From: a virus
Taxonomy: Duplodnaviria; Caudoviricetes
Reading direction: 5' to 3' (one strand)
Virus record (IMG/VR): IMGVR_UViG_3300026522_000028
Span: 1-64,000 of that record
Length of the DNA: 64,000 bases
The position numbers and the translations under genes are program-made. Shown here one piece after another: positions 2,719-54,681 of the stretch; position 1 is the first letter of the stretch, and each line of letters begins with the position of its first letter. The notes under the pieces were generated by a model. It did not search any database, was not told the origin of the DNA, and saw only the letters and a list, made by a program, of their open reading frames with translations.

Positions 2719-2911
2719 CGCTATAACGGTATAGAGGTATAACGGTATAGCGGTATAACGGCATAGAGGTATAACGGTATAACGGTATGAATGGCGAAAA
2801 CATTGATGTTACCGCTTGTATTTCATCGAATAACGGTGTATTATAGGGGCATAGAGGTATACCGTTATAACGGTATAACGGTATAGAGGTATAACGGTAT
2901 GGAGGTATGAC
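2719..2911 (+). repeat. parS-like centromere: two arrays (about 9 and 8 units) of an 8-bp repeat GGTATA(GA/AC) flanking the parA promoter
   Basis: Tandem GGTATAGA/GGTATAAC units at 2719-2790 and 2848-2911; promoter TTGTAT-17-TATTAT at 2816-2844 lies between them. Confidence 0.8.
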
Positions 2912-3755
2912 TATGATTACCATCGCGATCTGCAATAAAAAAGGCGGCGTCGGCAAGACTACCACAGCATATACGCTGGCGGCAATGCTTAAATTCAGAG
3001 ACTTCAAAGTTCTCGCCATCGATCTCGATGGACAATGCAATCTCACAAAGGTTTCAGGGTTCAATAAAAACTGTCCGACCGCATACTCCGTGCTTACACG
3101 CGAGGTTCCCATCAAGAACGCCATCGTTAAAACGGAGTGGTTCGATTTCGTCAAGGGCAGCAGGTCGTTGTTCACCATCGGGCAGGTGTTGTCCGAAGGG
3201 CCGGGGCGCGTCATGCGTCTTATCAATGCTCTAAAGACTATCGATAAGGATTACGACTTCTGCATCCTCGATACGCCGCCAGCCGTGGATGTTGTCACGA
3301 CTAATGCAATGATGGCTGCGGATTACATCGTGATCCCTGCGGAGGCCAACGAGCTTTCGACGGACGGCATCGTGTCTGTCAGTGATAGCGTCAAGGAAGT
3401 GCGGGAATACTTTAATTCCAATCTGGCAATCGCAGGCATCCTCCTGACGCGCTACCGTGGCAGAACGAACATCGCGCAGGACTACAAGGAAATCTTCAAG
3501 AAGTACGCGAAGACCATCGGCACTACTCTGTTCAAAACGGAAATCCGCGAAACTATTGCGTTCTCGGAAGTCCCGTCGATCCACCAGCCGATCTTCATGT
3601 ATCGCAAGGATTCGACGGGGACGGAGGACTACTCGAAGTTCACTACGGAACTCCTTAAGGTCATCAAGAAAAACGAAGAGAAGCTGGCAGAGACAAAGGC
3701 GCTGGAGGAAGAAAGGAAGACAACGGCGATAACGGAGGACAAGCTCAATGTCTAA
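2907..3755 (+). CDS. parA: Walker-type partition ATPase (type Ib, no N-terminal HTH)
   Basis: KGGVGKTT deviant Walker A, IDLDGQCN, ILDTPP motifs. Confidence 0.95.
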   Translation: MTMITIAICNKKGGVGKTTTAYTLAAMLKFRDFKVLAIDLDGQCNLTKVSGFNKNCPTAYSVLTREVPIKNAIVKTEWFDFVKGSRSLFTIGQVLSEGPGRVMRLINALKTIDKDYDFCILDTPPAVDVVTTNAMMAADYIVIPAEANELSTDGIVSVSDSVKEVREYFNSNLAIAGILLTRYRGRTNIAQDYKEIFKKYAKTIGTTLFKTEIRETIAFSEVPSIHQPIFMYRKDSTGTEDYSKFTTELLKVIKKNEEKLAETKALEEERKTTAITEDKLNV

Positions 3756-4077
3756 AAGAAAAAGATTTACGTCGGATGCGATGAGGAATGTCTTCCTACA
3801 TGGCGATGAATACAATAAAGAGCCTCCTGCGATTCCGAAGAGGGACGAAGAGCCAGAGGAGCCAGAGTCTAAGCCTGAGGAATCTCCAGAGGAAAAGCCA
3901 GCGGAGCCGCCGAAGAAGCCAAAGGCGAAATCGTGGGACGTGAAGACTTCTATATATCTTACCAACGAGGAATACGAACTGTTCCGCAGGTATGCATTCG
4001 AGAGCAATACAAAAATCAGCCGCGCCATCATAGACGCAGCGGTCGCACATATTAAAGCAATGGAGGGCGAAGAGTAA
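3748..4077 (+). CDS. Small centromere-binding protein (ParG/RHH-like)
   Basis: Overlaps the parA stop; low-complexity N-terminus followed by KTSIYLTNEEYELFRRYA...ISRAIIDAA (beta-helix-helix pattern). Confidence 0.7.
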   Translation: MSKRKRFTSDAMRNVFLHGDEYNKEPPAIPKRDEEPEEPESKPEESPEEKPAEPPKKPKAKSWDVKTSIYLTNEEYELFRRYAFESNTKISRAIIDAAVAHIKAMEGEE

Positions 4078-4655
4078 TGAAAAAGTTTTTCAAGGTAATC
4101 GTGCTGGTAGCTGTGTTCATCCTGTCATCCTTCGGGATGTCCGAGGCAGCGTCGTACAACTTCGTGAGCATCAGCAACCTCACGCCGCAGGAGTTCATGC
4201 AGCAGATGGAAGAGCTGTCGCAGCAGGAGAAGCACGGGCCGTTGACGTTCTCCGACCTGAACTATGGTGGCCCAGATGCCGATAATGCCTACACAATCTA
4301 TGTTGCCCACATGGGCAAATACACGACGGTAAAATTCCGTTGCGACAATAGAGGCATGGTAAGCAGCGTTATGCTCAAGCATTCCCGTGCATACAGTGCT
4401 CCAGACGAAGTGTTCGACGAGCAAATCAATGAGCAGGTCGATGCCGAGCATTGCATCATGAAAATCATTGGAATGAACGACGAGGAAATTCAGGAGTTCT
4501 ACAATGCCAGCGACGGACACTCGAACGTTACCGAAAAGATGTACCCGCGCATTTCCAAGCGCGTCATCGAATGCAGCAGCATGGATGTTGATCGTAGCAA
4601 TAGCAGCGACCCAATCTACACAAGCTCCTACGCATTCTTCGTATCGATGGAATGA
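4077..4655 (+). CDS. Secreted hypothetical protein (moron)
   Basis: N-terminal signal peptide MKKFFKVIVLVAVFILSSFGMSEAA; coupled to the parB-like gene. Confidence 0.75.
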   Translation: MKKFFKVIVLVAVFILSSFGMSEAASYNFVSISNLTPQEFMQQMEELSQQEKHGPLTFSDLNYGGPDADNAYTIYVAHMGKYTTVKFRCDNRGMVSSVMLKHSRAYSAPDEVFDEQINEQVDAEHCIMKIIGMNDEEIQEFYNASDGHSNVTEKMYPRISKRVIECSSMDVDRSNSSDPIYTSSYAFFVSME

Positions 4656-4656
4656 C

Positions 4657-4696
4657 AAAAAAAGTCCCCGGGGATTTTCCTCGGGGATTTTCTTTG
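4657..4696 (+). terminator. Intrinsic terminator
   Basis: CCCCGGGG-attt-TCCTCGGGG flanked by A and T tracts. Confidence 0.65.
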
Positions 4697-4814
4697 CCTG
4701 CGTAGGTAGCAATGATGCTTCATATTTTAGAAATAGAAGCAGGATATTTTAATCGAATGTCGAACTATATTGTATGAGTCAATTAGGATCAATAGGATTG
4801 GATGGTGAAGTCAA

Positions 4815-4985
4815 ATGAAAGCAATCGGAATTGCCATGATTATTTTTGGAATTGTCGGGCTAGGATTGGGGGCAATGATGTTTGGTGACATCGGGATTTC
4901 TTGCTCCTATGCAGCCATTGTGTCTATTCTTGCTGGCGTGGGATTCGTGAAAGCGAGTGGAGCTATCGAAGCGCATAGCAAGTGA
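4815..4985 (+). CDS. Small two-TM membrane protein (56 aa)
   Basis: Own translation MKAIGIAMIIFGIVGLGLGAMMFGDIGISCSYAAIVSILAGVGFVKASGAIEAHSK. Confidence 0.55.
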   Translation: MKAIGIAMIIFGIVGLGLGAMMFGDIGISCSYAAIVSILAGVGFVKASGAIEAHSK

Positions 4986-5010
4986 CGATTTCATACGAGG
5001 AGGGGTTTCA

Positions 5011-5823
5011 ATGAAAAAATTCCTAGTAGTAGCATTATCGGTACTCCTGTGTTTCGTCCTCGTCGGATGCGGCGGGCCGAAGAAAGTCTCCGATCAGCAG
5101 ATGACGCTGAGTCTTAGCTATGGCGATCGGAGCGGAACGTATACGGGCGAGGTCAACGATAAGAATGTCCCGAATGGCAAAGGTAAGTTCACGACGAAAA
5201 ATAGTAAAGGCATGACTTGGGTTTACGAGGGACAATTCAAAGATGGGCACTTCGATGGATCAGGAAAAACAACATGGCCTGATCTTGGAAGATCGGAAGA
5301 AGGAACGTATTCCAATGATCGTTTGAACGGTCAGGGAAAACTCGTAGATAAATACAGCCCGCAAAACAATTATGAAGGAAATTTCGAGAATGGCGTTCCT
5401 ATGGTTGCAGAGACAGCCAATGTAAACGAAGCTGTAACTTATGCAGATTGGGAATACAAAATTACGCAGGTAAAAGAGCAGACGAGTGCTGGTAACAAGC
5501 AGCCAAACGGGAGATATGTTGTCGTAGTCATTGACGACCAAAACAACGGTACTGAAACCCGTCAGCCAGCGCCGGAAGGGTTCTTCGTTCTGTACAATAA
5601 GCAAACTGGCGCTACGTACAAGATGGATGGCGAAGCAAACTTAGCGCTTAGAATGAGCACAAAGGATTGGAACGGCCCGTGGTATTTGAGCGAGGTCAAT
5701 CCGGGACTTTCAGTTTCTGGGATTTCGTTGTTCTTTGATGTTCCAAAAGATGTCCAGATTAGCGATTTGAAATTCCTGCCGAAAGATGGATTCGGAAAGG
5801 CGAAGCCTATTCAGCTCCAGTGA
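5011..5823 (+). CDS. Lipoprotein with MORN-like repeats and a DUF4352-like C-terminal domain
   Basis: Lipobox LVGC after a hydrophobic signal; repeats YTGEV..PNGKG, YEGQF..FDGSG, YEGNFENG; GGAGG RBS. Confidence 0.75.
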   Translation: MKKFLVVALSVLLCFVLVGCGGPKKVSDQQMTLSLSYGDRSGTYTGEVNDKNVPNGKGKFTTKNSKGMTWVYEGQFKDGHFDGSGKTTWPDLGRSEEGTYSNDRLNGQGKLVDKYSPQNNYEGNFENGVPMVAETANVNEAVTYADWEYKITQVKEQTSAGNKQPNGRYVVVVIDDQNNGTETRQPAPEGFFVLYNKQTGATYKMDGEANLALRMSTKDWNGPWYLSEVNPGLSVSGISLFFDVPKDVQISDLKFLPKDGFGKAKPIQLQ

Positions 5824-5915: not shown

Positions 5916-8900
5916 TCATTTGCGAGCTTGCTCCTGCTCAATGGCATCCACGATGACGCCGCCCTTGTTCCGCATGAATTCGTAGCGATGTCCCGGCTCA
6001 ACGCTGATTCCGCGCTGCCATCCACGGTATCGGTCATGATACTTCTGCTTCTTCCACGCGCTGGAAAAGACGATGCCGCTGATGTCTCCGTAGTCCGTGG
6101 CGAACGTGATGCGTGCCATCAGCCCACCGTTCTTGTCGGTGAACTCGTGGATGTCCTTCGGCGTGCCGATCAGCACCTTTGGCAGCTCGTGAAACGAGAA
6201 CGAAAGCACCTCCATCTCACCGGCGATAGCATCGTAGCGCTTCTCGGCGTTCTCTACGAACATCACCTCGCCGAGCTTCTGATACCACTTCAGGCGCATG
6301 TCCTTTGCGTGGCGATGCTTCTTTTCATCTGTGGTGCTCCACGCCTGCTCTTCGTAGTATTTGATGCGCTCTTTGCAATGCGCCTTGCGTTCCATGACTT
6401 CCTTCGTAGACTGGAGGTTCGCGATCATCCAGCCACGGGACTTGCCTGTGTAGTCCATCGCACCAGCCTTGATGAGATTTTCGACCACACGCTTGTTGTA
6501 CGATGACACCACAGTATCCCAGTCAAGCGATGGGAGCTGCGGAATCTCGCCGACGCCTTTGATGTACGTCAGTCCAACACGGAGTGCATCGCCCTCCACC
6601 GTCCACGTCAGGTTCCCGACCTTGAGGCTCGGCGGGAGAATCCTGATTTTCATACGGCGGCACTCCTCGATGTACGGCAGGAGCTTCTTCTGGTCGCTCC
6701 TCGAATTGAGCAGCGCACACATGTACTGCACAGGGTAATGAGCTTTGAGATACGCCGTCTTGTACGAGAGCTTCGCGTAGGAAACCGCGTGGCTGCGATT
6801 GAAGCAGTACCTTCCAGCCGCTTCGATCTGCTTTGCTACCTCCGCTGCTACCTCGTGGGAGTACCCGTTCTTCTCGCAGCCAGCAACGAACTCTGCGACG
6901 GCCTCTTTGATTTTCGTAAGCTCCTTGCGACCGATAACCTTGCGGAGTGCATCGGCCTGCCCAAGGTTATATCCAGCCATCTTCATTGCGATTTTCATAA
7001 TCATTTCCTGATAAACCAAGACGCCATAGGTGCTACCAGCGATTTCTTCCATTGCCTCACATGGATACGTGACTTCGATTTTCCCGTTCTTCGCATCGAT
7101 ATACTGCTGGAGCATGCCAGAATCCAGCGGGCCCGGGCGATAGAGCGCAACGAGAACTGCGAGGTCATCGAAGGAATTGACGTGGAGTTCCCGCGCAATC
7201 TTCTGCATGCCCGGCGATTCCATCTGGAATACGCCCGTCGTGTTGCCATCGGCATACATCTGATAAGTCTTTGCGTCATCCATCGGGATACTTTCGAGGG
7301 ACAGCGGCACGTCAATCATCTTCAGGCAATCGTCGATGATGTCCAGCGTGCGGAGGCCGAGGATGTCCAGCTTCAGCAGCCCCATCGCCTCCAGCGTGTG
7401 ATACTCAAAGGCTGCGACGCGGATGTACTCGCGCTTGCCCGTCGATGTATTCGTCGATGTGCAGCCCTCGATGGGACAATACTTTTCGACGGCATCAGGG
7501 GTAACAAGGATCGCCGACGCATGGACACCTTCTTTGTCGAGACGCCCGGCGAAATGCTTGGACACATCGAGGAGGCGTTCACGTTCCTCCTTCGTAAAGT
7601 CCGAGGGGACTGTGAGGATTTCATCGAGAGATTCTTTGAGCTGCCGTGTAACCGCGAGAACTCGCTCATGTGTCCACCGCAATCCCGTGTCCAGCTTATT
7701 ACTCTTGCGACGTTTTACCTCGGCTTGTGCGGCATCTGAGAGGGATAAAAATTCCTCTTTCTCCAGCGCTTGCTCGGCACGGAGAACCGCCTGCTTACCC
7801 ACGTCGGGCTTGTCGGGATTCTTGGTATAGCCGTAGGTCGTGACCTTGTAGACCGTACCGTAGTGCTCTCTGATATAGTCGATGATGCGGCTGCGCTGAT
7901 TCGTCGATACATCGGTGTCGATGTCCGGCATGGTGACGCGATACGGATTGCAGAAGCGGAAGAACTCTGTGCCGAACTTGATGGAGTCTACCTTGTGAAA
8001 TCCCATGAGATACCCGACGAGGCAACCAGCAGCAGACCCGCGCCCCTCGCCGACTGGGATGTTGTTCTTCACGCACCAGTTTACCAAGTCCCAGATGATG
8101 AGCAAGTAGTTCAAGTAATTCGTCGCTTCAAGGTCTTTCATCTCTGCCTCGAAGCGTTCTGCGTATTCGGCGTAATGCCCGTGCGGGACTTTGGCTTTCC
8201 AGTTCTTCCGGCAGATTTCGCGGACAACTTCGCCAGCATCGCGGTCGGTGTAGACAGGGTAATGCATACCGCCGAACTCAATCTCCACATTGCACATCTC
8301 AGCGATCCGTGCCGTGCTCTCGATGCATTCGTCTTTGACATCATCTGGAATCCACGGCGTTTTCCGCAGCTCGTCCTCGCTCCATTGGTAGTTCTCGTTG
8401 TCGTGGTATCCGTTGCCGTGAATCTGCAACCACAGGTAATGATAGGGTTCGTCTTCGGGACGAGCATAGTGGGCATCGGTCGTAACCACGAGGGGAACAT
8501 TGTACTTCCGCGCAAGGCCAATGACCTTCGCATTGTACTCCTGCTGCTTGTCGATGTTGAGCGGCTGGATTTCTGCGAAGAATCTGTCCCCGAAGATGTC
8601 ATGGAATTTCTCGAACCATTCTTCGCCGTCTGGCGTATTCACGATGGACGCCATGCACGCCGACAAACAGATGATGCCAGCGCTATGCATCCGCAGGTCA
8701 TCCACGTCGATGCGCGGTTTGTAAAACATGTGGGCTTCTTTGTAGGCAATCGTGTCGAGCTCTTTGAGATTCCGATAGCCCACATCGTTCATTGCAAGGA
8801 GCACGAGGTGGTGCGTCATCGAACGGTCGCGGACTGTGATGTCTGGGCAGAAGTAGAACTCGCAGCCGATGATCGGCTTAATGCCTTGTGCTTTGCATTC

Positions 8901-9056
8901 CTTGTAGAACTCTACGACGCCACGCATCGTCCCGTGGTCTGTAATGGAAAGCGCGGTGGCTCCCAGTTCTTTCGCCCGCGATACCATCTCTGGGATCGTC
9001 TGGTATCCATCGAGCAAGCTGAAATGACTGTGGTTATGCAGCGATACGTATTTCAT
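5916..9056 (-). CDS. dnaE: DNA polymerase III alpha subunit (family C, PHP domain)
   Basis: HNHSHFSLLDG, TDHG, PDIDTD, KLDILGLRTL, FNRSHAVSYA motifs. Confidence 0.95.
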   Translation of the reverse strand: MKYVSLHNHSHFSLLDGYQTIPEMVSRAKELGATALSITDHGTMRGVVEFYKECKAQGIKPIIGCEFYFCPDITVRDRSMTHHLVLLAMNDVGYRNLKELDTIAYKEAHMFYKPRIDVDDLRMHSAGIICLSACMASIVNTPDGEEWFEKFHDIFGDRFFAEIQPLNIDKQQEYNAKVIGLARKYNVPLVVTTDAHYARPEDEPYHYLWLQIHGNGYHDNENYQWSEDELRKTPWIPDDVKDECIESTARIAEMCNVEIEFGGMHYPVYTDRDAGEVVREICRKNWKAKVPHGHYAEYAERFEAEMKDLEATNYLNYLLIIWDLVNWCVKNNIPVGEGRGSAAGCLVGYLMGFHKVDSIKFGTEFFRFCNPYRVTMPDIDTDVSTNQRSRIIDYIREHYGTVYKVTTYGYTKNPDKPDVGKQAVLRAEQALEKEEFLSLSDAAQAEVKRRKSNKLDTGLRWTHERVLAVTRQLKESLDEILTVPSDFTKEERERLLDVSKHFAGRLDKEGVHASAILVTPDAVEKYCPIEGCTSTNTSTGKREYIRVAAFEYHTLEAMGLLKLDILGLRTLDIIDDCLKMIDVPLSLESIPMDDAKTYQMYADGNTTGVFQMESPGMQKIARELHVNSFDDLAVLVALYRPGPLDSGMLQQYIDAKNGKIEVTYPCEAMEEIAGSTYGVLVYQEMIMKIAMKMAGYNLGQADALRKVIGRKELTKIKEAVAEFVAGCEKNGYSHEVAAEVAKQIEAAGRYCFNRSHAVSYAKLSYKTAYLKAHYPVQYMCALLNSRSDQKKLLPYIEECRRMKIRILPPSLKVGNLTWTVEGDALRVGLTYIKGVGEIPQLPSLDWDTVVSSYNKRVVENLIKAGAMDYTGKSRGWMIANLQSTKEVMERKAHCKERIKYYEEQAWSTTDEKKHRHAKDMRLKWYQKLGEVMFVENAEKRYDAIAGEMEVLSFSFHELPKVLIGTPKDIHEFTDKNGGLMARITFATDYGDISGIVFSSAWKKQKYHDRYRGWQRGISVEPGHRYEFMRNKGGVIVDAIEQEQARK

Positions 9057-9261: not shown

Positions 9262-9438
9262 TCACAGTTCGATTCCCTGCGGGTAATGCCCGAGGCTGTT
9301 CCACGCGCAGAGATAACGGAATAATTTGTTGTTGTCCTCATTATACATCGGAGGTACGCAGGAGAAAATGTCAACGACTGACATGTGTTCCCGCTCCTGA
9401 ATCTTCGTAATCTCGCGGCCAATCTCATAAAAATACAT
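9262..9438 (-). CDS. Hypothetical protein
   Basis: AAAGGA RBS before ATG 9438 (MYFYEIGRE...). Confidence 0.5.
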   Translation of the reverse strand: MYFYEIGREITKIQEREHMSVVDIFSCVPPMYNEDNNKLFRYLCAWNSLGHYPQGIEL

Positions 9439-9491
9439 AGACACCAATCCTTTCGTTCCAAAATACATAGGAAACCTTCGTAGACGCACGA

Positions 9492-9570
9492 GAATGCCCC
9501 TCATACCTCTATGACGTTATAACGCTATACCTCTATAACGTCATACCTCTATAGAGGTACGTGGGGCATC
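9492..9570 (-). repeat. Dispersed copy of the parS-like 8-bp array (about 7 units)
   Basis: CATACCTCTATGACGTTATAACGCTATACCTCTATAACGTCATACCTCTATAGAGGTAC; flanked by TGCCCC/GGGGCA inverted ends. Confidence 0.8.
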
Positions 9571-9589: not shown

Positions 9590-10393
9590 TCAAAGATACT
9601 TTGCGATGAAATAGCTCTGGCCTTTCGGCGTGATTTCCGTTGTTTTTGTGATTGACCTGAATCCAGTCGCGGGATTCGTCCACGTCGTTTCCTTGATATG
9701 GAACAGTCCTGATTCCATAGCTTTCTGTGTCGGGATGTTCCATTCGTTCTTCGACTTCTGCAAGAGGTTATCATCGCGGAGTTTTTCAAAGAGCCTCGTG
9801 CGCCCAACATGAGCGCCGCTCTGACGGAGAATCTTTGCCATGTCTCCGATGCTGATGTTCTCCTCTGCCGATGTAATGGCTTTGCCGAGCTCCGTCATCG
9901 GCTTCTCGCGCTCGATCCTTGCTTCGAGGTCTTTGGATTTCTCCTGTTCTGCTTTGAGCGCTTGGAGAAGACCGATGGCAAAGTCGGGGTCACTAATGAC
10001 TCTCGCCATCGTCTCCGTTGTCATGTACGCGCCGTGCTTACGAATGCTTGGGAGAACATCGTTCGTTACCCAATGCTTGAACTTCTTCGCCGCTGGCAGT
10101 TTTGAACCGAAGACCAATGCATACACGCCTGATTCGTTGATGAACCAGTTGTCCTGCCGACCGAAGGTTTCCTGCATTTCCTTTAGCGAGCTAAAGAGTT
10201 TTCCCATTTCGTTACCCCTGCTTCCACGCAGGAACTTGTCTTCCTCATCAACGTGGTCGAGGATAGCTTTGTTCGTGTTGCGGTATCCAAGGATTTCTGC
10301 AACGTCTTTGCCAACGAACCACGGGCCATCTTCGAGACGTACCGTGCGAACCGAGCCGAACTCTTCATTGTTGAAAATCTGGACTTCATTCAT
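9590..10393 (-). CDS. Phage antirepressor (Bro-N plus KilAC/ANT C-terminal domain)
   Basis: MNEVQIFNNEEFGSVRTV...PWFVGKDVAEILGY; C-terminal ISIGDMAK...GRTRLF...TPKGQ.YF. Confidence 0.9.
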   Translation of the reverse strand: MNEVQIFNNEEFGSVRTVRLEDGPWFVGKDVAEILGYRNTNKAILDHVDEEDKFLRGSRGNEMGKLFSSLKEMQETFGRQDNWFINESGVYALVFGSKLPAAKKFKHWVTNDVLPSIRKHGAYMTTETMARVISDPDFAIGLLQALKAEQEKSKDLEARIEREKPMTELGKAITSAEENISIGDMAKILRQSGAHVGRTRLFEKLRDDNLLQKSKNEWNIPTQKAMESGLFHIKETTWTNPATGFRSITKTTEITPKGQSYFIAKYL

Positions 10394-33600: not shown

Positions 33601-35363
33601 CATGATGCGTGCGATCTGATGCGCTGTCCAAGGCTGTACACTTTACGCTCTGCACCTTCGACACCCTTCTGGAAATTCTCGTACTCCTTGCGCGTCGAAA
33701 TGAGAGCGTTGCGGGTAGCGGCGAAGTTCGCAAGGTTCTTCGGCGATGGGTCTTTGAGGTACGTCGCATACAGATTTTCCGTAGCGTTCTGCAAACGATT
33801 GATTTCCTGACGGTATGACATCAGAGGAGCACTGTAGGATTTTGCATTGAGATCACCCATGCTCTTCGCATAGTTCTCAAACGTGTTGAACCGCTCGTCA
33901 TCCTTCAGCGGGTTCGCCGAAATCTTCGCCTGCAAGCCGTACTTTTCACGGAGCGCTGCGATTTCCTTTTCGAGATCGGCGAGAGCCTGTCTGCGACCAT
34001 CGTATTCATCCTTTACCAGCGTCTTGCCCTTTTCGAGATCGATGTTTATCTTACGAACCAGTGCTTCATACTGCTCCGTCTTCGCAACCAAGTCAGCCTG
34101 TGCTTTTTCGAGGTCGCGGGTAGCTTTGTATTCCTGCGGAGTCTGCTGGTAGGCATTGAACTGGTAGTGGCCGTTGTCGTGAATCTTGTTCTCCAGCTCT
34201 TTTGCCTTTGGATAATTCTTCGCATACTGCAACGGAGACATCGGGGAACCCATCTCTTTTGCCATGCGGAGTTCGTAGTTCATCTTCTGCAACTGAGCGA
34301 TGTAGCCAGCCGTGGCTTTCTCTTTGGCTTCGATGTCTGCCAGCTCTTGCCGACGTGCCTCTGCCTGTTCACGCATAGCTTTCTGCTGCTCCTCGAAAGC
34401 CCGCTTGTCTTCAGCGTGAGCGGTGCGTGCCTTTGCCTCAGCCTCAGCTTTCGCCAATGCCTCCGCTTCCTTCTGTGCGGCTTTCGCGGCACGCTCGGCT
34501 TCATCAGCGGCTTTCTTCTGGTTCTGTGCGATTGCCTTGGAACGAGCCTCGATGCCCTCCTGAATCTCCCTGATATTCCCGCGAACTCTACGGTTCTGCG
34601 AACCATCGTTGTCGATACCTTTGAGATAATCCGTCCAACTCTTCTCGGTCAGCAGAGACTTCTTCGTGAAGTCGGCGTCTTTCCCAAACTCTGCGAGGGC
34701 TTTCCGCGCTGCTTCGATGTCGGCAATCTGCTGCTTCCATGCGGACTGCGAAAGTTTGATGCCCTGCTCCCGCTGGCGGTTCGACGATTCCACGAGCTTG
34801 TCGTAGTTCTTCTGTGCCTCCGCGAGTCTGCCAAAGTATTCTTTCTCCTGCGATTCGAGGGAACCAGCTTTGAGTCCCTTCTTCATATCCTTGTAATAGG
34901 ATTCGAGAGCACGCAGGCGAGACATTGTATATTCGATGCCGTTGACTTCAATCTTCGTAGACAGCCCATTCTTCATCATCTGCGAAAGGTTGTCAATGGC
35001 TTTCTCCGTAATACGGAGTTTTTCAGCGTAGGTCTGCAACGCAGCATTCGCACCCTTCGTTGCCACCTGAATACCCTCGATGCCCTTCGCACCTTCCGAT
35101 GCTTCCTTCGCAAGATTGCCATCGGTAATTTTCAGATTGCCCTTCGAGATTTCGCCGAGACTACTCTTCATGCCATCGAGTTCCTTACGAATCTCTCCGA
35201 CTTCCTGCTTCAGCCCTGTGCTATCAAGGGAAATCTTTTCGTTCCTGATTTCCCCGATGGACTTCCGCAGACCGTCAACGTCTTTCGCGAGGGACTGAAT
35301 GGTTTCCTGTGCATTCCCCTTGTTGACCTCTACGGTGTAAACAAGTTTTCTATTCTCTGCCAA
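27648..35363 (-). CDS. Tape measure protein (2571 aa) with muralytic domains
   Basis: TP901-like core (IGEAIENAG, IGQSIKS), Ala-rich repeats, lysozyme-like GQMMAEGG and M15-like H...KAAD...YHVS segments. Confidence 0.9.
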   Translation of the reverse strand: MAENRKLVYTVEVNKGNAQETIQSLAKDVDGLRKSIGEIRNEKISLDSTGLKQEVGEIRKELDGMKSSLGEISKGNLKITDGNLAKEASEGAKGIEGIQVATKGANAALQTYAEKLRITEKAIDNLSQMMKNGLSTKIEVNGIEYTMSRLRALESYYKDMKKGLKAGSLESQEKEYFGRLAEAQKNYDKLVESSNRQREQGIKLSQSAWKQQIADIEAARKALAEFGKDADFTKKSLLTEKSWTDYLKGIDNDGSQNRRVRGNIREIQEGIEARSKAIAQNQKKAADEAERAAKAAQKEAEALAKAEAEAKARTAHAEDKRAFEEQQKAMREQAEARRQELADIEAKEKATAGYIAQLQKMNYELRMAKEMGSPMSPLQYAKNYPKAKELENKIHDNGHYQFNAYQQTPQEYKATRDLEKAQADLVAKTEQYEALVRKINIDLEKGKTLVKDEYDGRRQALADLEKEIAALREKYGLQAKISANPLKDDERFNTFENYAKSMGDLNAKSYSAPLMSYRQEINRLQNATENLYATYLKDPSPKNLANFAATRNALISTRKEYENFQKGVEGAERKVYSLGQRIRSHASWIGSGMLVGATLTIPAGILSQIAELDQQMASIRQVIPQMEANPNEAGTAKFAEEQKRMNQAMTDFIGIASKYGVATNEVMDAARSIGRMYGQGENGVKNTEIFTAQAAKMSVADAFPMLNAVKGLEAAMSQWNLQTNDSTKLMRNSQYILDIWTRTAHNGAASAQDIGEAIENAGTAAAQAGVSFDFFNALVETGVRATARSGNEIGQSIKSMMVSMQSDKAAKALKQWGIELTEVGEDGKKHMRSMEDVIMDVSLLVSTTTTDTQKLISVLSGGRYQYSKVSAILKNYKELLRMQGLLNDGNTKGFTDQQVAVQMDTISRKFQKIKEDMTQSVAAIGQGGGLNEIKYLLNTIDNVIVGINKLNESFADGQNHVKKYIDVIMGLGTAYLVLRRAVGAYERAVGAYHASENAQAAGGSGMTVWDNYRKAQRARGSVYGAGKAATDQAIIDVTNGESASKARETAAENANSGATANNSNQKRGNTAATTAASGATNNETASKTRETAAENANASATARDTATKAGNAAASRSAAAAETVEAAAARSAAGANTANAASERAAGLAAGTLGVRSRVAAAGVSALATAQRVANVALAAFGGPIGLVITAATVLVPLYLSSAEAAGEAANAEKELKDAMDQRIASAQEEAELADRQGQAAEKLAKQYNALEDKIKSGTLTTEEATKAKQHQGEIEQTVSEILGRSAVQFDENGKMNIQTIKAVAAANRGKSTEQLKQDAQQMRSEARKIRADVSATHESVKNARTRIDNMKKEAQSCKQVATAYGALWSLIAGFKAAVGNFKIKEAAELEDLANSYGDKAGDKSFLGWFGFARDSRIDGIGGPDAARAEAARLREEGLEDNENAVHMISEHGGSQHDAESIIDGAAAAIGDYTATLEDVNDDREGEAANLEKMAGDSDAAAALITGDDETDGIATSHDNGYQDPNNYTNSRTPKGKTPHTPKDDKEIYEYDTETAQASFNLGHYLSEEGVDTATMLALVKIANGLGGIDKGSLEGLTDPFQTGGENPMRSAFLLGQKYYDRKQPGMSAIDVLAALYPNADIRGQLDAYTTHLTKGDKGTSFAGYDFSTRAPKNGDDFDDENNHKVSSGYVANSHDYENGGYTSPELRKIADETAAIISEHLGGAQVNSDFLYGQMMAEGGYGAQQQQYHNYAGIGPWHQYASDEDFEKAYAYEYYADGVDGKRARALRAPTATEFVNLIDLDDNGNIASDGWNHDANQDDYARNIDMYANEGNRKAAAPVNTTGDIDATPTGVLGANYDIKWDDSDALDPEFLTKLAMFHEHFLRAAQILAGSDKDFEVTSTTGGSHDDPNHAAGKAADLVSDLFYDADFRGKMTEWAEAHGLRVYDEYDRANWTGKTTGDNYHVSDAGGAAADFSQTAKAASADFSAAGISVKGAGVQIVDAWKGTQKGLYSWNKSGIELKRQFDQLAKKLHETTQAVIEFGQKIRGNLDPQQHADAFKDARVQVAQTTQNVDFWKAAKTKTNNDLWATLHDGKHNDVLAAIGNTDFGKLSDESQNELASKAQNSKDLQQAVKNNQMAKAGYDEAFTASLKARGNYADVVGHMTQSDYVKTQMSEVDNYYNEQTMDNRMPQYKANEEAAKAKKEILDNYKKKLNENLVAAMKQTDEDLVTMGNDRIVAQKSVNAVQAEYDKQDAKVKELQAKGNPAEIEELNAVIRKRDEINNQLNTEKEHLQDIDESIEQTKNLGNVTMRNTITELHNVATETKKCDDVINDSARQLQTTITNGFHTMFSDVLLEGKSFADSFKNLWKSIGQLALNILMNRWLDPWIGGLFGHHANGGSVDKKATGGIIGYAGGGQAGGAIRGAGTGTSDSILAYLANKDKFVYLSNGEYVMTAEATKRIGKDQLDQMNYGKYAAGGAISPTPYVPQLSPIATKKAQSLTHENSNKRLEELMVDQTNTIKKMGGDRGNGGGVVILNTHASSDDVMKALAENPRAVQAILGRQRHYGFR

Positions 35364-35380: not shown

Positions 35381-35997
35381 TCATTGATCTCCGAGGAGCG
35401 CATGAATGGCATCGTCGCCCTCCAGCACTTCTCCGCTACCAGATTCACCTTCGATATACTTGCGCTCTTCTTCCGCGTTCTCGCCGAGCCCGATGAGCAG
35501 GTCTTCAAGCTGATTGATCCGCAGCTCCTCGATGTCATGCATCGTCATGCTCGTGTTCTTCACGATGGACGCGAAGAGGTTGCGCCAATGGGTTTCCTCA
35601 CCCTTCTTTACATCTGTTTTTTTTTGAAAGAGGAAAGACCAAGGAACATCAGCACGATTTCCTTTGCAATATCGAGGTCGAGCCATTCCTCAATCTGCTC
35701 CCGCGTTTCACGATGGTCGAGCGCGAGTTCGACGATTTCCATCAGGTCATCGACGAAACCGTTGTTGTAATTGATGTTGCCATCGGCATCGCGCTCCACC
35801 TCGCCATCTTCATCGAGGACAGGGGCCAGCATGTAGAGCCCGAAGGTGTCCGCGTTGTATTTCTCCGTGAAGTCCGTGATGGTCTGCAAGTCTTTGAAGC
35901 ATGCGCTGTAGATGCGATGCTTCTTACCGTTGCGGTCGCGGATAGTCTCGTAGAGTGTCAGCGTATTCTCGTTGTTATCATCAGTTTTCTTTGCCAT
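35381..35997 (-). CDS. Tail assembly chaperones G (35608-35997) and GT (via -1 frameshift)
   Basis: A9 slippery run (plus-strand T9 at 35617-35625) at the end of G; the -1 frame reads on to 35381; located between tail tube and tape measure. Confidence 0.8.
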
Positions 35998-36017: not shown

Positions 36018-36093
36018 GTACCGTTATACCTCTATACCTCTATAACGTCATACCTCTATGGAGGTATGGAGGTATAACGGTATAAACCGTTAT
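36018..36093. repeat. Dispersed copy of the parS-like 8-bp array (both orientations)
   Basis: GTACCGTTATACCTCTATACCTCTATAACGTCATACCTCTATGGAGGTATGGAGGTATAACGGTATA. Confidence 0.8.
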
Positions 36094-36095: not shown

Positions 36096-36124
36096 TAAAA
36101 AAAGAGGGAGCCGCAGCCCCCTCA
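36096..36124 (-). terminator. Terminator after the tail tube gene
   Basis: GAGGGG-ctgcgg-CTCCCTC-T7. Confidence 0.7.
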
Positions 36125-36135: not shown

Positions 36136-36879
36136 TCAGTCAGCAAGGCGCGTGATCGTGATAACCGCGAAATCGTCCTTGCCATCGCCCGGGTCGAGAA
36201 TGTTGACCGTGAGCTCCGGCGTCGATGCCTTGTCACGAGCCGTGTCGATGGAGAACTTACCATCGCTGCGGACGCGGCGTGCATAGAGGTCAATCTGGTA
36301 CTTGTGACCTTCGCTGTCCTCCGTGATGAAGAACCAGTTGAACGTAGCAACCTCCGGCATAGCGTTCTTCAGCATCGATGCCTGAACCGCGTTCGTATCG
36401 TCAGCCTTGTACCAGACACGATACTCACCATCGGCAGCATCCGTAGCAAACGTGAGCTTGCCCGTAGCATCGACCGTGAGCTTGCCCGTAGCCTGACCAT
36501 CCGGGCCAACGACCGTGATGACTTCGACGCCCGTCATCGTTGCGCCAGCGATGAGCTCCGTGTCCGTCTTCTTGACGATGACGCGACCCGTGCGCTTGTT
36601 ACCCGTGAAGGAGAGGTTCGTACCCTGCGAAACCGCAAGCTGCGAGAGCTTGAACTCTGCATTCGTAATCTTCACAGAGCCCTCCTTCTTGGAGATGTAG
36701 GTGTAGAGCGGGAACAGGGAGTCACCACCGTACTGCTCCTCGGACGTAGCGTTGACCTCCATCTTCATGGACTGGGACGTTTCCATTTCAAGAATCTTGC
36801 CAGACACAGTTTCGAGCACACCCTTGCCGATGCCGTGCAGGAGAAGACCCTTGTTGACAATGTTGTCTGCGATTGCCAT
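36136..36879 (-). CDS. Major tail tube protein
   Basis: Size and position between the tail terminator and the chaperones; beta-rich. Confidence 0.7.
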   Translation of the reverse strand: MAIADNIVNKGLLLHGIGKGVLETVSGKILEMETSQSMKMEVNATSEEQYGGDSLFPLYTYISKKEGSVKITNAEFKLSQLAVSQGTNLSFTGNKRTGRVIVKKTDTELIAGATMTGVEVITVVGPDGQATGKLTVDATGKLTFATDAADGEYRVWYKADDTNAVQASMLKNAMPEVATFNWFFITEDSEGHKYQIDLYARRVRSDGKFSIDTARDKASTPELTVNILDPGDGKDDFAVITITRLAD

Positions 36880-48134: not shown

Positions 48135-48474
48135 TTGACAACGAACCGATAAAGCGCTATACTGTGAAGCGTCCAAAGGGAACAGGGACAACGCAAGACA
48201 GCGACCCTGCGCCCGTCGCGAATCGTCGAAATTCGACAGGACGAAAAAAGTCCTTGACAACGAACCGATAAAGCGATATAATGGGGGCACCGAAAGGCAA
48301 AGAGGTCCATCCTACGAGACGACTCGGCTACGTGCATTGATTTGACACGCGAGTACGTCGTGGGGGGCGACGCTAAAACTCTATGCTTTTCATAGCTGCC
48401 ATTGTACGCTCGTAGTCTGTCCATTGTCGCCGACGAAAAAAGTCCTTGACAACGAACCGATAAAGCGATATAAT
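48135..48474 (+). promoter_or_regulatory. Three tandem near-identical strong early promoters
   Basis: TTGACA-acgaaccgataaagcg(a/c)-TATA(A/C)T at 48135, 48254 and 48446; A-tract UP element before the second and third. Confidence 0.9.
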
Positions 48475-51768: not shown

Positions 51769-51832
51769 AAATCCGCAGTAATCTGGGCGCGTCAAGGGAC
51801 GTGCCTAGGCTAGTGGGGATTTTCCCACAGAA
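51769..51832 (+). repeat. Early two-hairpin element, copy 4
   Basis: TCCGCAGTAA, TCTGGGCGCGTC/GACGTGCCTAGG stem, CTA, GTGGG-gatttt-CCCAC, AGAA. Confidence 0.8.
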
Positions 51833-51848
51833 ATAGGGAGGTATATCC

Positions 51849-52025: not shown

Positions 52026-52028
52026 ACC

Positions 52029-52289: not shown

Positions 52290-52291
52290 CG

Positions 52292-52486: not shown

Positions 52487-52488
52487 CA

Positions 52489-52767
52489 ATGGAACCATTG
52501 AGAACTACTGTGGTGTTCCGCAAGTTTAGGGACGGCGATGTCATCGCATTGTTCCCAGAGGACGGGGAGTTTTCCAGCGGTCGCATCATGACCTACATGC
52601 ACGACGGGCAGCACTGTTCTGCGCCGTATCCAGAAATCGTGCAAGGGACAATCCCAGCGATGCCGGAGGAATACGCCGACCTGTTGGAGGAACTGAAATA
52701 CGTTGGTTACATTCCGGTTGTGCGGAAGAAATGCCATGTAAAGTGGAGCTGCCAGTATCGGTATTGA
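52489..52767 (+). CDS. Early hypothetical protein (VVFRKF...IALFP...HDGQH family)
   Basis: Operon packing; motif type recalled from mobile elements. Confidence 0.7.
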   Translation: MEPLRTTVVFRKFRDGDVIALFPEDGEFSSGRIMTYMHDGQHCSAPYPEIVQGTIPAMPEEYADLLEELKYVGYIPVVRKKCHVKWSCQYRY

Positions 52768-52783
52768 ATGGAGGACTGAAATC

Positions 52784-53131
52784 ATGAAGAACGAACAGAA
52801 TTACAAGGGATTCGCGGCCATCCGTGACAAGGCGGTGGAGATTGGAATGCCGAAGTATTGGGCAACAGACCTAGGGATCGACGCGATGTCCCTGTGGGAA
52901 CACAAGGACACACCGTTCATCTGGATTCCTCGTGAGTGCGGCACGGCTCTCGTGCTGCTCGACGAAACGAACAAGACAATACAGGATTGCGGGCTGGGTA
53001 TCGTAGACTACTATCGGACGCAGGAGGAGACAGCACGGTTCTTCTATTGGGACGGCGATAGGCTAACCGAGAAAACTGGAGATGAAGCCTACGATATAAC
53101 CGCAACCGCATTCTCTGCAATCGCAGGATAA
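52784..53131 (+). CDS. Early hypothetical protein
   Basis: GGAGG RBS; FIWIPRECGT motif. Confidence 0.7.
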   Translation: MKNEQNYKGFAAIRDKAVEIGMPKYWATDLGIDAMSLWEHKDTPFIWIPRECGTALVLLDETNKTIQDCGLGIVDYYRTQEETARFFYWDGDRLTEKTGDEAYDITATAFSAIAG

Positions 53132-53148
53132 CATTTTGCAAAAACTAC

Positions 53149-53177
53149 TTGACAATGACACGATAATCGTCTATAAT
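53149..53177 (+). promoter_or_regulatory. Internal consensus sigmaA promoter
   Basis: TTGACA-17-TATAAT. Confidence 0.85.
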
Positions 53178-53253
53178 GAAACCATCGAGAGGCGATAGGG
53201 ACAACAAAGATATACGCAGACGATAACATCTATGTGAACGGAGGAACGGAACA

Positions 53254-53601
53254 ATGAAATCCTATGACGAAATCGTTGAAGAAATCTACAACATGAACGA
53301 TGAGGAAATCGTGAACATCTGGAATGAGTATTGCGACTACGCAAACAACGATGACCGCATCTATCCGATGGACGAGTTTGAGTCCATCGCAGAGCCGCCG
53401 TCGAAATGCTGGGACGAGTTCTGGGAAATGTTCGATGACCTGAAGGACTTCGACCGTAATGCCGCGTGGTTCTACAAAGATGACCGCTGGGATTGCTGGA
53501 CTTCCCTTGACAATCCTTGGGATGTAGTCAGTCCAGAGGATATGGCTAGGGCCATCGCCGATGGAGACTTCGATCCGAGCTGGGATTTTGAGGAGGAATG
53601 A
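53254..53601 (+). CDS. Highly acidic early protein (DNA-mimic candidate)
   Basis: About 31% D+E over 115 aa; first gene after the promoter. Confidence 0.7.
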   Translation: MKSYDEIVEEIYNMNDEEIVNIWNEYCDYANNDDRIYPMDEFESIAEPPSKCWDEFWEMFDDLKDFDRNAAWFYKDDRWDCWTSLDNPWDVVSPEDMARAIADGDFDPSWDFEEE

Positions 53602-53605
53602 ACCA

Positions 53606-53914
53606 ATGGAAGTCACAGAACTTTCCCGTGACCAGCTCACGGAGCTCAAAGGGAATTACCTTGACGAACGAATGGACGGCAGCGCAAGCTGGGGAGAAAT
53701 TGCCGACGCCGACGAAATCATCAGCGACGCCGAAATCTTTGAGGCATACGCGGGATACGAGTTCGGCAACGATGACTTCTTCTGCACCGCTGGAATTTCA
53801 GAGGACTTATTCGACGCCGACGAGCGGACTGTCCTAAGAAGCGTCCGCCAATGCGCCGACAGGATTACTTTGGAAGACATCGAGCGCAACGCAAGCATAG
53901 TTTGCGCCGTGTGA
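53606..53914 (+). CDS. Acidic early protein
   Basis: GAGGAGG RBS before ATG 53606. Confidence 0.65.
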   Translation: MEVTELSRDQLTELKGNYLDERMDGSASWGEIADADEIISDAEIFEAYAGYEFGNDDFFCTAGISEDLFDADERTVLRSVRQCADRITLEDIERNASIVCAV

Positions 53915-53930
53915 TTGGAGGAATTGAACG

Positions 53931-54572
53931 ATGAAAGAGCAGAAAATCAGAGTGTATGTTCCGTCGATTCAGATGGTGAAGACCTACAGATACGACGAGC
54001 TGCCGGAGGAATCCAAGGGAAGCATTCGGGATGAATGGAGAGATGGCGATGATTACGATTGGTCGGAGGAGATTGCTTCGATGAAAGCTATCGCGAAAGC
54101 ATTGAACTGTGACCTGCGATACGAGCAGGACCCGTGGGGTTGGACTGTGAGACTGTCTCCGAACTTCGAGTACATAGACGAGGAGAAAATCAGCGGTGTG
54201 CGTGCTCTGGCGTACATCGAAAACAAATTCATCACGCCGAACGAGAAAGGGAAGTTCTATGGATACTTCTACAACTACGGAAAGCGCGAATACAGGGGAA
54301 TCACGAAGAGTTTGGATTGTCCGTTCACAGGGTTCTGGCTGGACGATGACCTGCGGGTTGCCTATGAAATCTGGAAGGATCACCTGCGTGGAAATCCGCA
54401 GATAACCGTCGAAGATTTCCTGATGTTTGTCGAGGACACGCTGAAGAAAGACTTGGATTCCATCGTCGAAGACCATCAGACCGACGAGTATGTTGACGAA
54501 GAAATCGAAGCGAACTGGGATGACCGCTGGTATACCATCGACGGTAGGGATGTGACCGATGATATTGCATGA
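53931..54572 (+). CDS. Early protein (Y.YDEL...EEIEANWDD.WYT.DG type)
   Basis: GGAGG RBS; terminal motifs typical of a widespread phage early family. Confidence 0.7.
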   Translation: MKEQKIRVYVPSIQMVKTYRYDELPEESKGSIRDEWRDGDDYDWSEEIASMKAIAKALNCDLRYEQDPWGWTVRLSPNFEYIDEEKISGVRALAYIENKFITPNEKGKFYGYFYNYGKREYRGITKSLDCPFTGFWLDDDLRVAYEIWKDHLRGNPQITVEDFLMFVEDTLKKDLDSIVEDHQTDEYVDEEIEANWDDRWYTIDGRDVTDDIA

Positions 54573-54635
54573 GTGTCCGCAGTAATCTGGGCGCATCCGA
54601 TGATGTGCCTAGGCTAGTGGGGATTCTCCCATAGA
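54573..54635 (+). repeat. Early two-hairpin element, copy 5
   Basis: TCCGCAGTAA, TCTGGGCGCATC/GATGTGCCTAGG stem, CTA, GTGGG-gattct-CCCAT. Confidence 0.8.
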
Positions 54636-54681
54636 GGTATAGAGGTATAACGCTATAGAGGTATGGAGGTATAGAGGTATG
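54631..54681 (+). repeat. Dispersed copy of the parS-like array; supplies the RBS and ATG of the next gene
   Basis: ATAGAGGTATAGAGGTATAACGCTATAGAGGTATGGAGGTATAGAGGT-ATG. Confidence 0.8.

Follow-up and report, generated by a model that had tools for sequence, protein, structure and literature searches.

The window analysed here, a stretch of 64,000 nucleotides, belongs to the 76-kb record of a tailed phage that is most likely maintained as a plasmid by Selenomonas-type bacteria of the rumen. Virion genes (TerL, portal, and tail) are accompanied by maintenance genes (ParA and DnaE), a combination that marks phage-plasmids, and the phage is syntenic with pSRC3, a circular plasmid in the complete genome of Selenomonas ruminantium TAM6421. 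Given that one member of this phage-plasmid family, pSRC3, exists as a circular replicon within a complete genome, functional partition is to be expected of the family. Genes, promoters, and repeat arrays considered below are collected in Table 1.

Table 1. Genes, promoters, and 8-bp repeat arrays of the phage (positions in the window; for the seventh array, in the record)
Feature	Position	Strand	Remarks
Cro/CI-type HTH gene	479-895		Conventional
Leftward sigma-70-like promoter	2674-2703	-	TTGACA-18-TATGAT, TG-extended; 17 bp from A1
Array A1	2720-2791	+	Nine contiguous units; flanked by the leftward and par promoters
Probable par promoter	2816-2844	+	TTGTAT-17-TATTAT, read from the sequence; under the promoter-scan threshold
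Array A2	2848-2911	+	Eight units; from about +1 of the par promoter through the SD
parA	2913-3755	+	Small Walker ATPase, 280 aa; AAA_31 1.7e-44, CbiA 8.3e-22
Candidate centromere-binding protein	3748-4077	+	109 aa
dnaE	5916-9056		
Array B	9500-9563	-	Seven units plus one inverted; palindrome 9544-9559
Bro/ANT antirepressor gene	9590-10393		
Array C	36023-36086	-	About five direct and three to four inverted units; palindrome 36051-36066
Array D	45978-46037	-	Seven units plus one inverted
Array E	54628-54683	+	Seven units
Small tyrosine recombinase	56446-57036		
Sigma-70 region-4-like HTH protein	60538-61083		
Seventh array	74545-74584 (record)		Five units; before gene 74340-74549(-); helicase operon

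The repeat unit, GGTAT[A/G][A/G][A/C], is itself pseudo-palindromic (NN-TATA-NN) and is repeated in tandem in a strict 8-bp register. Such repeats had been claimed for five dispersed loci, and tandem 8-bp units in perfect register were indeed found at all five; however, these loci hold six arrays, and a seventh array of five units lies outside the window in the same record. The two-unit pattern GGTATRRMGKTATRRM occurs 21 times, every time within an array, and was detected neither in 100 dinucleotide shuffles nor in a backward-read control of the whole 76-kb record, while single units outside the arrays stay at background level (106 vs 106 in the reversed control). The palindrome attributed to three of the arrays, TACCTCYATRGAGGTA, is present exactly three times (at 9544, 36051, and 46022), with an expectation of 0. 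All arrays are restricted to intergenic gene-start positions, and the orientation of their units is that of the downstream gene (7/7 arrays).

Two of these arrays, A1 and A2, bracket the par promoter, and iterated repeats at this position are a mark of type Ib partition systems, as is the architecture of ParA, which has no N-terminal HTH or other DNA-binding domain and carries a deviant Walker A motif near its N terminus (KGGVGKT at residues 10-16, with the AAA_31 and CbiA matches beginning at residues 3-4). The hexamers of the par promoter are kept in the close relative L006 with a different spacer, and in distant relatives both the -35 and the -10 lie in register within the array. A2 is probably the autoregulatory operator of par. 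As the original prediction had it, the repeat supplies the GGAGG of parA (2901-2905, within A2); from the sequence, the start codon is likely to be ATG 2913, 7 nt past GGAGG, which is preferred because it is aligned with the starts of the relatives, and the ATG at 2907, within the repeat, is probably not used for parA. On the other side of A1, the -10 of the leftward promoter abuts a DnaA box (2666-2674).

Directly 3' of parA lies a small partner gene whose ATG (3748) overlaps the parA stop (3755), and the same arrangement is found in all relatives. Its product is composed of an N-terminal SDAMR motif, an acidic/proline linker, and a C-terminal RHH-like domain (residues ~64-107), for which a strand-like segment followed by helices 73-83 and 88-107 was predicted; the conservation of the SDAMR motif is only suggestive of a ParA-activating tail. 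Neither Pfam nor the sequences of solved structures in the PDB gave a match above threshold for this protein. Structures of omega and ParG are present in the PDB, and a profile search of all PDB sequences returned no RHH partition protein and no ParG or omega match. Sub-threshold Pfam matches among 12 family members were to RHH_7 (7/12), to NikA-like families (6/12), and also to ParD/TacA, and the closest ESM Atlas clusters carry RHH Pfam families with scores of 0.85-0.90, which serve as leads only. The monomer model is poor (pLDDT 59). The homodimer model scored 0.54 versus 0.00 for the best control, a mark attained by 20 of 30 proteins whose solved structures are same-chain pairs and by 1 of 23 whose solved structures are single chains, and this score may simply mirror a likeness to the many solved RHH dimers. 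Runs of the dimer model agree in at least 98% of contacts with pLDDT of at least 78, and the modelled interface consists of an antiparallel ribbon (residues 65-71, centred on S68) and helix 93-102.

Examination of array positions in related genomes had been proposed as a check, and it came out in favour of the 3748-4077 protein as the reader of the arrays. Arrays of at least four units were counted in the full-length syntenic relatives G001 (pSRC3), G003, and G004, whose ParA proteins are 55-57% identical (four, five, and nine arrays, respectively; 0 in reversed controls), and all three genomes keep arrays at corresponding gene boundaries, namely 5' of parA, 5' of the homologue of gene 9262-9504 before dnaE, at the tail-tube/chaperone junction, and 5' of the terS-like homologue. 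The copies in the relatives are short and dissimilar, with no clear counterpart of array E, and every relative has a cluster of arrays around its par operon. Each genome uses one repeat dialect, common to all its arrays, and the dialect changes together with those ribbon residues of the candidate centromere-binding protein that are predicted to face the DNA (three dialects, three residue sets), a relationship that comprises two or three independent contrasts only, between genomes in which every other protein diverges too. Ribbon residues K/S/Y go with GGTATAGA/GGTATAAC units (G000 and L006), R/T/Y with GGTGTAAT/TGTATAAT units (G001, G003, G004, G005, L007, and also L008, whose dialect was read by eye from the sequence upstream of its parA), and R/M/Y with AGTRTAAT-type units (G002, where the dialect was found with a loose pattern that gave one cluster in the control too). 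In L006, the parA-proximal operator together with its SD and ATG is identical to array D over 50 nt and nearly identical to array E, which is a near-identical inverted copy of D. Since the par operator of L006 equals array D, the par autoregulator of L006 should act on the D/E genes of the phage studied here. The idea that one protein reads all arrays thus stands insofar as a single array family is tied to a type Ib-like operon, and it gains comparative support from the conserved positions, the dialects, and the shared L006 operator; on these sequence grounds, the product of gene 3748-4077 quite probably binds the arrays.

Another trans-acting factor might read the arrays instead, with the par-linked protein binding only the par-proximal ones or none, and candidates for such a factor are the sigma-70 region-4-like HTH protein, the Cro/CI-type HTH protein, the terS-like HTH protein, or a host protein. 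DNA-binding proteins other than the par-linked one are indeed encoded and conserved across the phage-plasmid family, and since all proteins diverge alongside the dialect, the co-variation does not single out the candidate RHH protein. In the relatives, moreover, TATAAT is present in many units and array units make up the par promoter, so that attraction of polymerase or a sigma-like factor is conceivable. However, none of the G000 units (TATAGA, TATAAC, and TATGGA) ends in the T that closes a -10 box, and the clustering of arrays around the par operon in every relative also argues against such a factor. Distal units are the same as par-proximal units, array D being identical to the L006 par operator, and one binder should therefore bind both; moreover, runs of 5-9 contiguous 8-bp units are atypical for HTH repressors and sigma factors but typical of RHH proteins (PMC3130281, PMC9499535). 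We regard a different reader as distinctly unlikely.

The distal arrays head very different genes. Array B separates the Bro/ANT antirepressor gene from the small genes ahead of dnaE, and its flanks lengthen it to a dyad of ~75 nt. The direct units of array C face gene 35608-35997(-), and the array comes directly after the terminator (36104-36123(-)) of a tail-tube-like gene (36136-36879). Array D follows two tRNA genes and precedes the gene of the terS-like protein (212 aa, HTH-containing), and array E lies in the rightward early gene array, 5' of an 86-aa gene. For both of these genes, the repeat had been predicted to supply the ATG, and homologue N-terminal alignments agree with starts at ATG 45982, in the last unit of D, and at ATG 54679, in the last unit of E. 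Arrays B and E belong to apparently longer transcription units that have consensus promoters further upstream, and D, too, appears to lie within a longer unit. Consensus scans found no sigma-70-like promoter beside arrays B-E, and a recognisable promoter is flanked by the parA arrays only; any effect of B-E would thus be that of a roadblock or of 5'-proximal occlusion and might have either sign. An operator role of these four arrays is a conjecture. By eye, one possible TG-extended -10 was noted upstream of array B.

RNA folding bears on whether the arrays act mainly in cis on the transcript. As portable leader cassettes, they would provide SD-like repeats and a start codon, and at module boundaries the hairpins formed by inverted units would cause processing, stabilisation, or attenuation of polycistronic mRNAs. 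Very stable hairpins were predicted for B (-47.2 kcal/mol, z -8.7), C (-42.8, z -7.4), and D (-23.3, z -4.3), B, D, and E lie within apparently longer transcription units, and D, E, and the L006 par leader are one cassette ending in SD and ATG. The orientation of units along the downstream genes would be superfluous for a pure centromere, which leaves room for a role of this kind. Yet A1, A2, and E show no significant structure, and hairpins arise automatically from the inverted units that are usual in RHH operators. Arrays of the relatives hold their positions although they carry no SD-like sequence and lie 60-90 nt or more from the start codons, and a purely transcript-level function would leave the tracking of the par protein by the dialect unexplained. 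Such a function is very unlikely to be the main one. The near identity and inverted orientation of D and E also raise the idea that the arrays are recombination substrates or selfish repeats; homologous or site-specific exchange between D and E would, for example, flip an 8.7-kb segment with early promoters and tRNAs, a small tyrosine recombinase is encoded (Table 1), and the occurrence of the D/E cassette at parA in L006 suggests transfer between sites. This idea appears highly improbable, because the relatives hold the same positions with short and dissimilar copies and without a clear counterpart of E, and because it does not explain the tandem 8-bp structure, the linkage to par, or the genome-wide dialect.

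The reading we favour, with a probability of roughly 60%, is that a ParG/omega-like partition protein occupies every array and that the arrays are centromeres as well as operators or roadblocks. The 8-bp units would be binding sites for the dimeric RHH protein that partners ParA, presumably with one dimer per pseudo-palindromic unit and with neighbours bound cooperatively, so that 5-9 units would be coated over ~40-70 bp. Occupancy of A2, from the transcription start to the SD, would autorepress par, and A1 and A2 would double as the centromere, as in TP228 ParG and pSM19035 omega; A1 also abuts the leftward promoter, which points into a neighbouring origin-like region. The same protein would sit on arrays just ahead of the leading genes in five modules (the dnaE operon, tail assembly, terS-like/packaging, the early block, and, outside the window, the helicase operon), where the distal arrays would provide extra centromere sites together with operators or roadblocks, making these modules responsive to the amount of partition protein per genome copy. 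Whether the distal arrays regulate their adjacent genes is evenly balanced in our judgement, and that the effect would be the silencing of lytic genes in the plasmid state is rather doubtful. A conventional Cro/CI-type HTH gene and a Bro/ANT antirepressor gene are also encoded, and pSRC3 has an ImmA/IrrE gene in addition. A still bolder and decidedly speculative extension is that the partition protein acts as a copy-number-sensing master regulator of the phage-plasmid family, with partition, replication control, and lytic timing resting on one autoregulated RHH protein. The ~50 units per genome would then be occupied in the low-copy plasmid state and titrated free on genome amplification, portable operator-SD-ATG cassettes would head the replication, packaging, tail, and early modules, and specificity would be re-tuned by two ribbon residues.

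Partition proteins are usually regarded as housekeeping parts of plasmids. Should a single small RHH protein bind at each module boundary of a tailed phage, in a layout that relatives have preserved while altering their repeat sequence, partition would be coupled to the phage gene programme, and such coupling would extend beyond N15 and the Proteobacteria. The dialects, together with the two or three ribbon residues that change with them, may constitute a compact specificity code, and the operator-SD-ATG cassette may be a natural portable control element. The family is tractable, as pSRC3 resides in a cultured and fully sequenced rumen strain.

Among known systems, the geometry of E. coli MetJ, whose RHH dimers bind contiguous 8-bp palindromic metboxes, one per unit and with cooperative contacts, fits the units described here, but MetJ, a chromosomal repressor of metabolism dependent on a co-repressor, has neither a ParA partner nor a centromere role. 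Phage N15 had been invoked as a precedent, and this holds for its dispersed centromere sites (IR1-IR4; PMC7205306) but not for the class of protein. Both phages are tailed-phage plasmid prophages with centromere sites dispersed in the genome, whereas the N15 system is of type Ia: its ParB, SopB, is a large HTH protein that spreads after binding to single inverted repeats, and no RHH protein acts on tandem 8-bp arrays there. In 2008, Ravin and colleagues reportedly found that the Sop system of N15 facilitates late gene expression, rather than silencing it.

In TP228, ParG dimers coat boxes at 8-bp spacing in the operator OF and the centromere parH alike, the promoter-proximal array being the operator and both arrays being able to act as centromere (PMC3130281). 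In ParF-ParG and in the system here, the gene of a small Walker ParA precedes that of a small partner with a C-terminal RHH dimer behind a flexible N-terminal tail (predicted for the phage protein), and boxes recur every 8 bp, direct and inverted, in two adjacent upstream arrays (12 + 8 boxes in TP228, 9 + 8 units here). The TP228 box is ACTC plus an AT spacer, whereas the unit here is an 8-bp pseudo-palindrome, and membership of the ParG family was rejected given this difference and the lack of a sequence match in the PDB profile search. Unlike TP228, the phage has five more arrays across its 76-kb genome, ahead of replication, tail, packaging, and early genes. In this respect it resembles pSM19035, whose omega protein has six binding arrays, each with 7-10 heptads, which overlap three promoters and function as parS, and where at least four contiguous repeats are required for ParA activation (PMC9499535); there, one small RHH protein reads mixed-orientation arrays at several control regions, as is proposed here. 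Membership of the omega family was likewise rejected (no homology in the PDB profile search, and a period of 8 bp vs the 7-bp WATCACW). The omega arrays overlap promoters of copy-control and partition genes and target plasmid genes, whereas here overlap was seen at the par promoter only and the arrays neighbour phage modules, most distal ones without a recognisable promoter. Type Ib regulator-centromere networks are already known, and the system described here is a variant of them, for which delta/omega of pSM19035 would, by analogy, be the closest functional model of a joint centromere and regulon.

The original prediction placed parS-like repeats at five dispersed loci, and all five were found, on reading the sequence, to be made of 8-bp units in unbroken register. 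Every unit is a pseudo-palindrome of the form NN-TATA-NN whose outer dinucleotides are drawn from one small set, the most frequent units in the present genome being GGTATAGA, GGTATAAC, GGTATGGA and GGTATGAC. Arrays were detected by chaining units in 8-bp register, with reversed-sequence controls. A two-unit pattern gave 21 matches, all within arrays, compared with 0 matches in 100 shuffles and 0 across the whole record when the pattern was read backward as a control, thus confirming the predicted arrays; single units outside them occur at background frequency. A 16-bp palindrome occurs exactly three times, at junctions between a direct and an inverted unit. Using a symmetric unit pattern, we also extended the prediction by one array beyond the window, which brings the genome total to seven arrays at six loci. 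The last unit of this seventh array (GGTATGAG) contains the ATG of a small gene, and the array heads the block leading to a DnaB-like helicase gene. In every array, the units are oriented in the direction of the following gene. Replication iterons are unlikely, since 8 bp is too short, there is no Rep gene, and the arrays are dispersed over six loci.

Repeat arrays and associated features (record positions)
Feature	Position	Strand	Composition or remark
Array A1	2720-2791		9 units
Array A2	2848-2911		8 units
Array B	9500-9563		7 units + one inverted
Array C	36023-36086		about 5 direct + 3-4 inverted units
Array D	45978-46037		7 units + one inverted
Array E	54628-54683		7 units
Seventh array	74545-74584 (L029:10545-10584)	-	five units
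DnaA box	1697-1705	+	TTATCCACA, perfect
DnaA box	2666-2674	-	TTATCCACA, perfect
Leftward promoter-like site	2703-2674		strong
Probable par promoter	2816-2844		TTGTAT-17-TATTAT
SD before parA	2901-2905		GGAGG
Likely parA start	2913		ATG
Partner protein gene	3748-4077		109 aa
B with non-repeat flanks	9490-9570	-	ATGCCCC ... GGGGCAT
Promoter-like site of operon containing B	10863-10835		right after terminator
Presumed tape-measure gene	27648-35363		2571-aa ORF
Tail-tube-like gene	36136-36879		intrinsic terminator
Bro-N/HNH gene	44242-45252	-	fused domains
tRNA-Met (CAT) and tRNA-Tyr (GTA) genes	46233-46398	-	
Early promoters	48135-48474	+	three, within 340 bp
Sigma-like protein gene	60538-61083	-	181 aa
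DnaB-like helicase gene	70576-72579		
Gene started by seventh array	74340-74549	-	

The window covers the first 64 kb of an IMG/VR record of 76,180 bp, rated complete by CheckV. The element encodes TerL, portal and tail genes, as well as ParA, DnaE, a Cro/CI-type HTH protein, a small tyrosine recombinase and a C5 methylase. Plasmid pSRC3 (NC_017073.1) encodes a TerL with 81% identity to the one here. This plasmid is circular, 73,380 bp long, and belongs to the completely sequenced Selenomonas ruminantium subsp. lactilytica TAM6421; most of its genes are syntenic with the present record. Its annotation lists ParA, a hypothetical protein at the position of the partner protein (the product of the gene following parA), DnaE, a DnaB-like helicase, a sigma-like HTH protein, and an HTH regulator with ImmA/IrrE. 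Considering that virion genes are combined with ParA and DnaE and that a syntenic relative is a circular plasmid, these elements make up one family of phage-plasmids belonging to Selenomonas-type Negativicutes; for the present record, the host is assigned to this group through the relative pSRC3 only. What is new here is a Negativicutes family of tailed phage-plasmids with six or more arrays at conserved module boundaries, in which the arrays, as judged from sequence comparison, change dialect (the unit variant used by one genome) together and in which a portable operator-SD-ATG cassette occurs among them. Neither this family nor networks of ribbon-helix-helix (RHH) arrays in phage-plasmids turned up in the literature, within an incomplete coverage that leaves such absence unproven.

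The probable par promoter is bracketed by A1 and A2, and A2 spans from about its +1 to the SD of parA. ParA, a small ATPase of the Walker type, lacks a DNA-binding domain, and its stop codon is overlapped by the partner gene. Left of A1, the -10 of the leftward promoter-like site is abutted by one of the two DnaA boxes, between which lies a gene-poor stretch; a DnaA box of the same sequence is present upstream of the par arrays in relatives. B occupies the space that separates a Bro/ANT antirepressor gene from two small genes leading to the phage dnaE, in an operon apparently starting at a promoter-like site. C lies directly 3' of the terminator of the tail-tube-like gene and precedes the gene pair that stands before the 2571-aa ORF. 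D is located between the tRNA pair, itself just upstream of D and the packaging genes, and a 212-aa HTH-containing (terS-like) gene, which lies two genes upstream of TerL with the Bro-N/HNH gene, whose product joins a Bro-N domain to an HNH endonuclease domain, in between. E is inside the rightward early gene array; three sigma-70 consensus promoters, all with 17-bp spacers and two matching at 12/12 positions, lie about 6 kb upstream of it and face the early genes.

Consensus promoter scans detected no sigma-70-like site adjoining B, C, D or E, and the arrays of this genome were rejected as host-sigma promoters because the units lack the final T of the -10 and a conserved -35 is absent, although in relatives array units do make up the par promoter. 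A role at the transcript level is suggested by the strict co-orientation of units with genes and by very stable predicted hairpins at B (-47.2 kcal/mol, z -8.7), C (-42.8, z -7.4) and D (-23.3, z -4.3), but A2 and E show no significant folding, and in relatives the arrays do not resemble an SD and lie away from start codons. CsrA-type GGA sites were likewise rejected because units of relatives contain no GGA. B together with its non-repeat flanks forms a dyad of about 75 nt, which accounts for the -47.2 kcal/mol fold and has no U-tract after it; it could serve mRNA processing or stability in the interval from the antirepressor gene to the dnaE genes.

Relatives came only from profile-seeded scans and PLSDB. 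The profile-seeded scans detected ParA-plus-partner loci in five IMG/VR records and three further metagenome contigs (L009 is the same contig as L005 and was counted once), whereas an exact repeat search of IMG/VR gave no match and protein-seeded scans of IMG/VR and GTDB genomes gave no relatives; in a phage collection, all ParA relatives were at most 36% identical and all TerL relatives below 60%. By examining related viral records at whole length, we found four arrays of at least four units in pSRC3 (G001), five in G003 and nine in G004, with none in the reversed-sequence controls of these three. When mapped against orthologues, all three carry arrays at the same four boundaries, namely in front of parA, in front of the gene corresponding to 9262-9504 that precedes dnaE, between the homologues of the tail-tube and chaperone genes, and in front of the terS-like homologue. 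Additional arrays in relatives lie before TerL (in G003 and G004, between the Bro-N/HNH gene and TerL), in the leader of the helicase operon, and just 3' of the partner gene; the helicase block contains an array in G005, G001, G003 and G002.

Within each genome, all arrays use one dialect. The dialect of G001, G003 and G004 (GGTGTAAT/TGTATAAT/GGTATAAC) differs from that of the present genome mainly at unit positions 7-8, and partner proteins of this group have R/T/Y as predicted DNA-facing residues. The present genome and its close relative, contig L006, share K/S/Y and a common dialect, and G002 has R/M/Y with AGTRTAAT-type units. Such tracking of dialect with ribbon residues would be expected if the partner protein reads the arrays, although the independent contrasts number only two or three and divergence of other proteins runs parallel to the dialect change.

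The partner protein has no Pfam match, and comparison of its family profile with PDB sequences returned only noise, with no match among solved structures. Alignment with its few relatives (seven close and nine more distant) divides the protein into three parts: an SDAMR motif at the N terminus and a strand-helix-helix block at the C terminus are conserved, and the acidic/proline linker between them varies. The AlphaFold monomer model (pLDDT 59) is too weak for a fold search. In the ESM Atlas, the nearest clusters are annotated with RHH families (scores 0.85-0.90, to be taken as leads only), and sub-threshold matches were obtained to RHH_7 in seven of 12 family members, to NikA-like proteins in six of 12, and to ParD/TacA. 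A homodimer model of residues 58-109 scored 0.54 (best control, 0.00), a score reached by 20 of 30 proteins solved as one-chain pairs and by one of 23 solved as single chains; contact agreement between runs was at least 98% and pLDDT at least 78. The modelled interface, an antiparallel two-stranded ribbon (65-71) centred on S68 plus a helix (93-102), has the RHH signature, and by the usual ribbon alternation K66, S68 and Y70 would face the DNA. Several weak lines thus concur on an RHH fold, as a likeness rather than proof, because many RHH dimers have already been solved.

L006 provides a further link between the par locus and the distal arrays. Its ParA is 90% identical to that of the present record and the RHH domain is identical. 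Its array between the par promoter and parA (L006:1757-1812) includes 50 nt identical to array D and differs from E at few positions only, and the ATG in the last array unit is the parA start. The same operator-SD-ATG cassette therefore heads parA in L006 and the terS-like gene (ATG 45982) and an early gene in the present genome, where both starts, within D and E, are backed by N-terminal alignments. Because the cassette is common to these sites, a par controller working through it should also act on the terS-like and early genes here. Its distribution suggests gene conversion or movement from one site to another. D and E, which lie 8.7 kb apart on either side of the tRNAs and the three early promoters, are inverted and nearly identical copies that could recombine with each other, but no such pair is conserved in relatives. 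L006 is also mosaic: proteins of the 4077-5823 region are 99-100% identical to those of the present record versus 90% for ParA, and the N-terminal half of its partner protein is much more diverged than ParA, which implies that the par operon ends at a recombination boundary.

Another protein, such as the CI-type HTH protein or the sigma-like HTH protein, is a less probable reader of the arrays; either fits poorly with the tandem 8-bp architecture and the par linkage. The sigma-like protein has weak matches to sigma-70 region 4 and HTH_23 and is kept in the phage-plasmid family (58-64% identical); it may be a late-gene regulator and may also be an alternative candidate reader. Conventional regulators are also encoded here (the Cro/CI-type HTH gene and the antirepressor), and pSRC3 adds ImmA/IrrE. 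The proposal that the 3748-4077 protein is the reader is plausible, given that dialect tracks its ribbon residues and that D matches the par operator of L006, and the best-supported reading is that the arrays are read by a type Ib-like system working like ParG and omega. The partner protein would coat about 50 units per genome, providing autorepression and a centromere at the par arrays, where A1 may also influence the leftward promoter pointing into the origin-like region. Since the distal arrays lie in 5' leaders or inside operons, they would likely act as additional centromere sites and as a roadblock or occlusion near the start codon. Titration, with rising copy number derepressing array-linked genes, is conceivable as pure inference.

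Facilitation of late expression has reportedly been observed in N15. An RHH dimer on each contiguous 8-bp palindromic unit poses no steric problem, as MetJ on tandem 8-bp metboxes shows. ParG dimers coat boxes that recur at 8-bp intervals and in mixed orientation, the operator having 8 of them and the centromere 12, and both box arrays show centromere activity (PMC3130281). Omega recognises heptads, 7-10 to an array, in six arrays that lie across three promoters and double as parS; ParA activation requires a run of four or more contiguous repeats (PMC9499535). Although the present system is not a member of the sequence family of omega or ParG, its mode of working is most likely similar to theirs.
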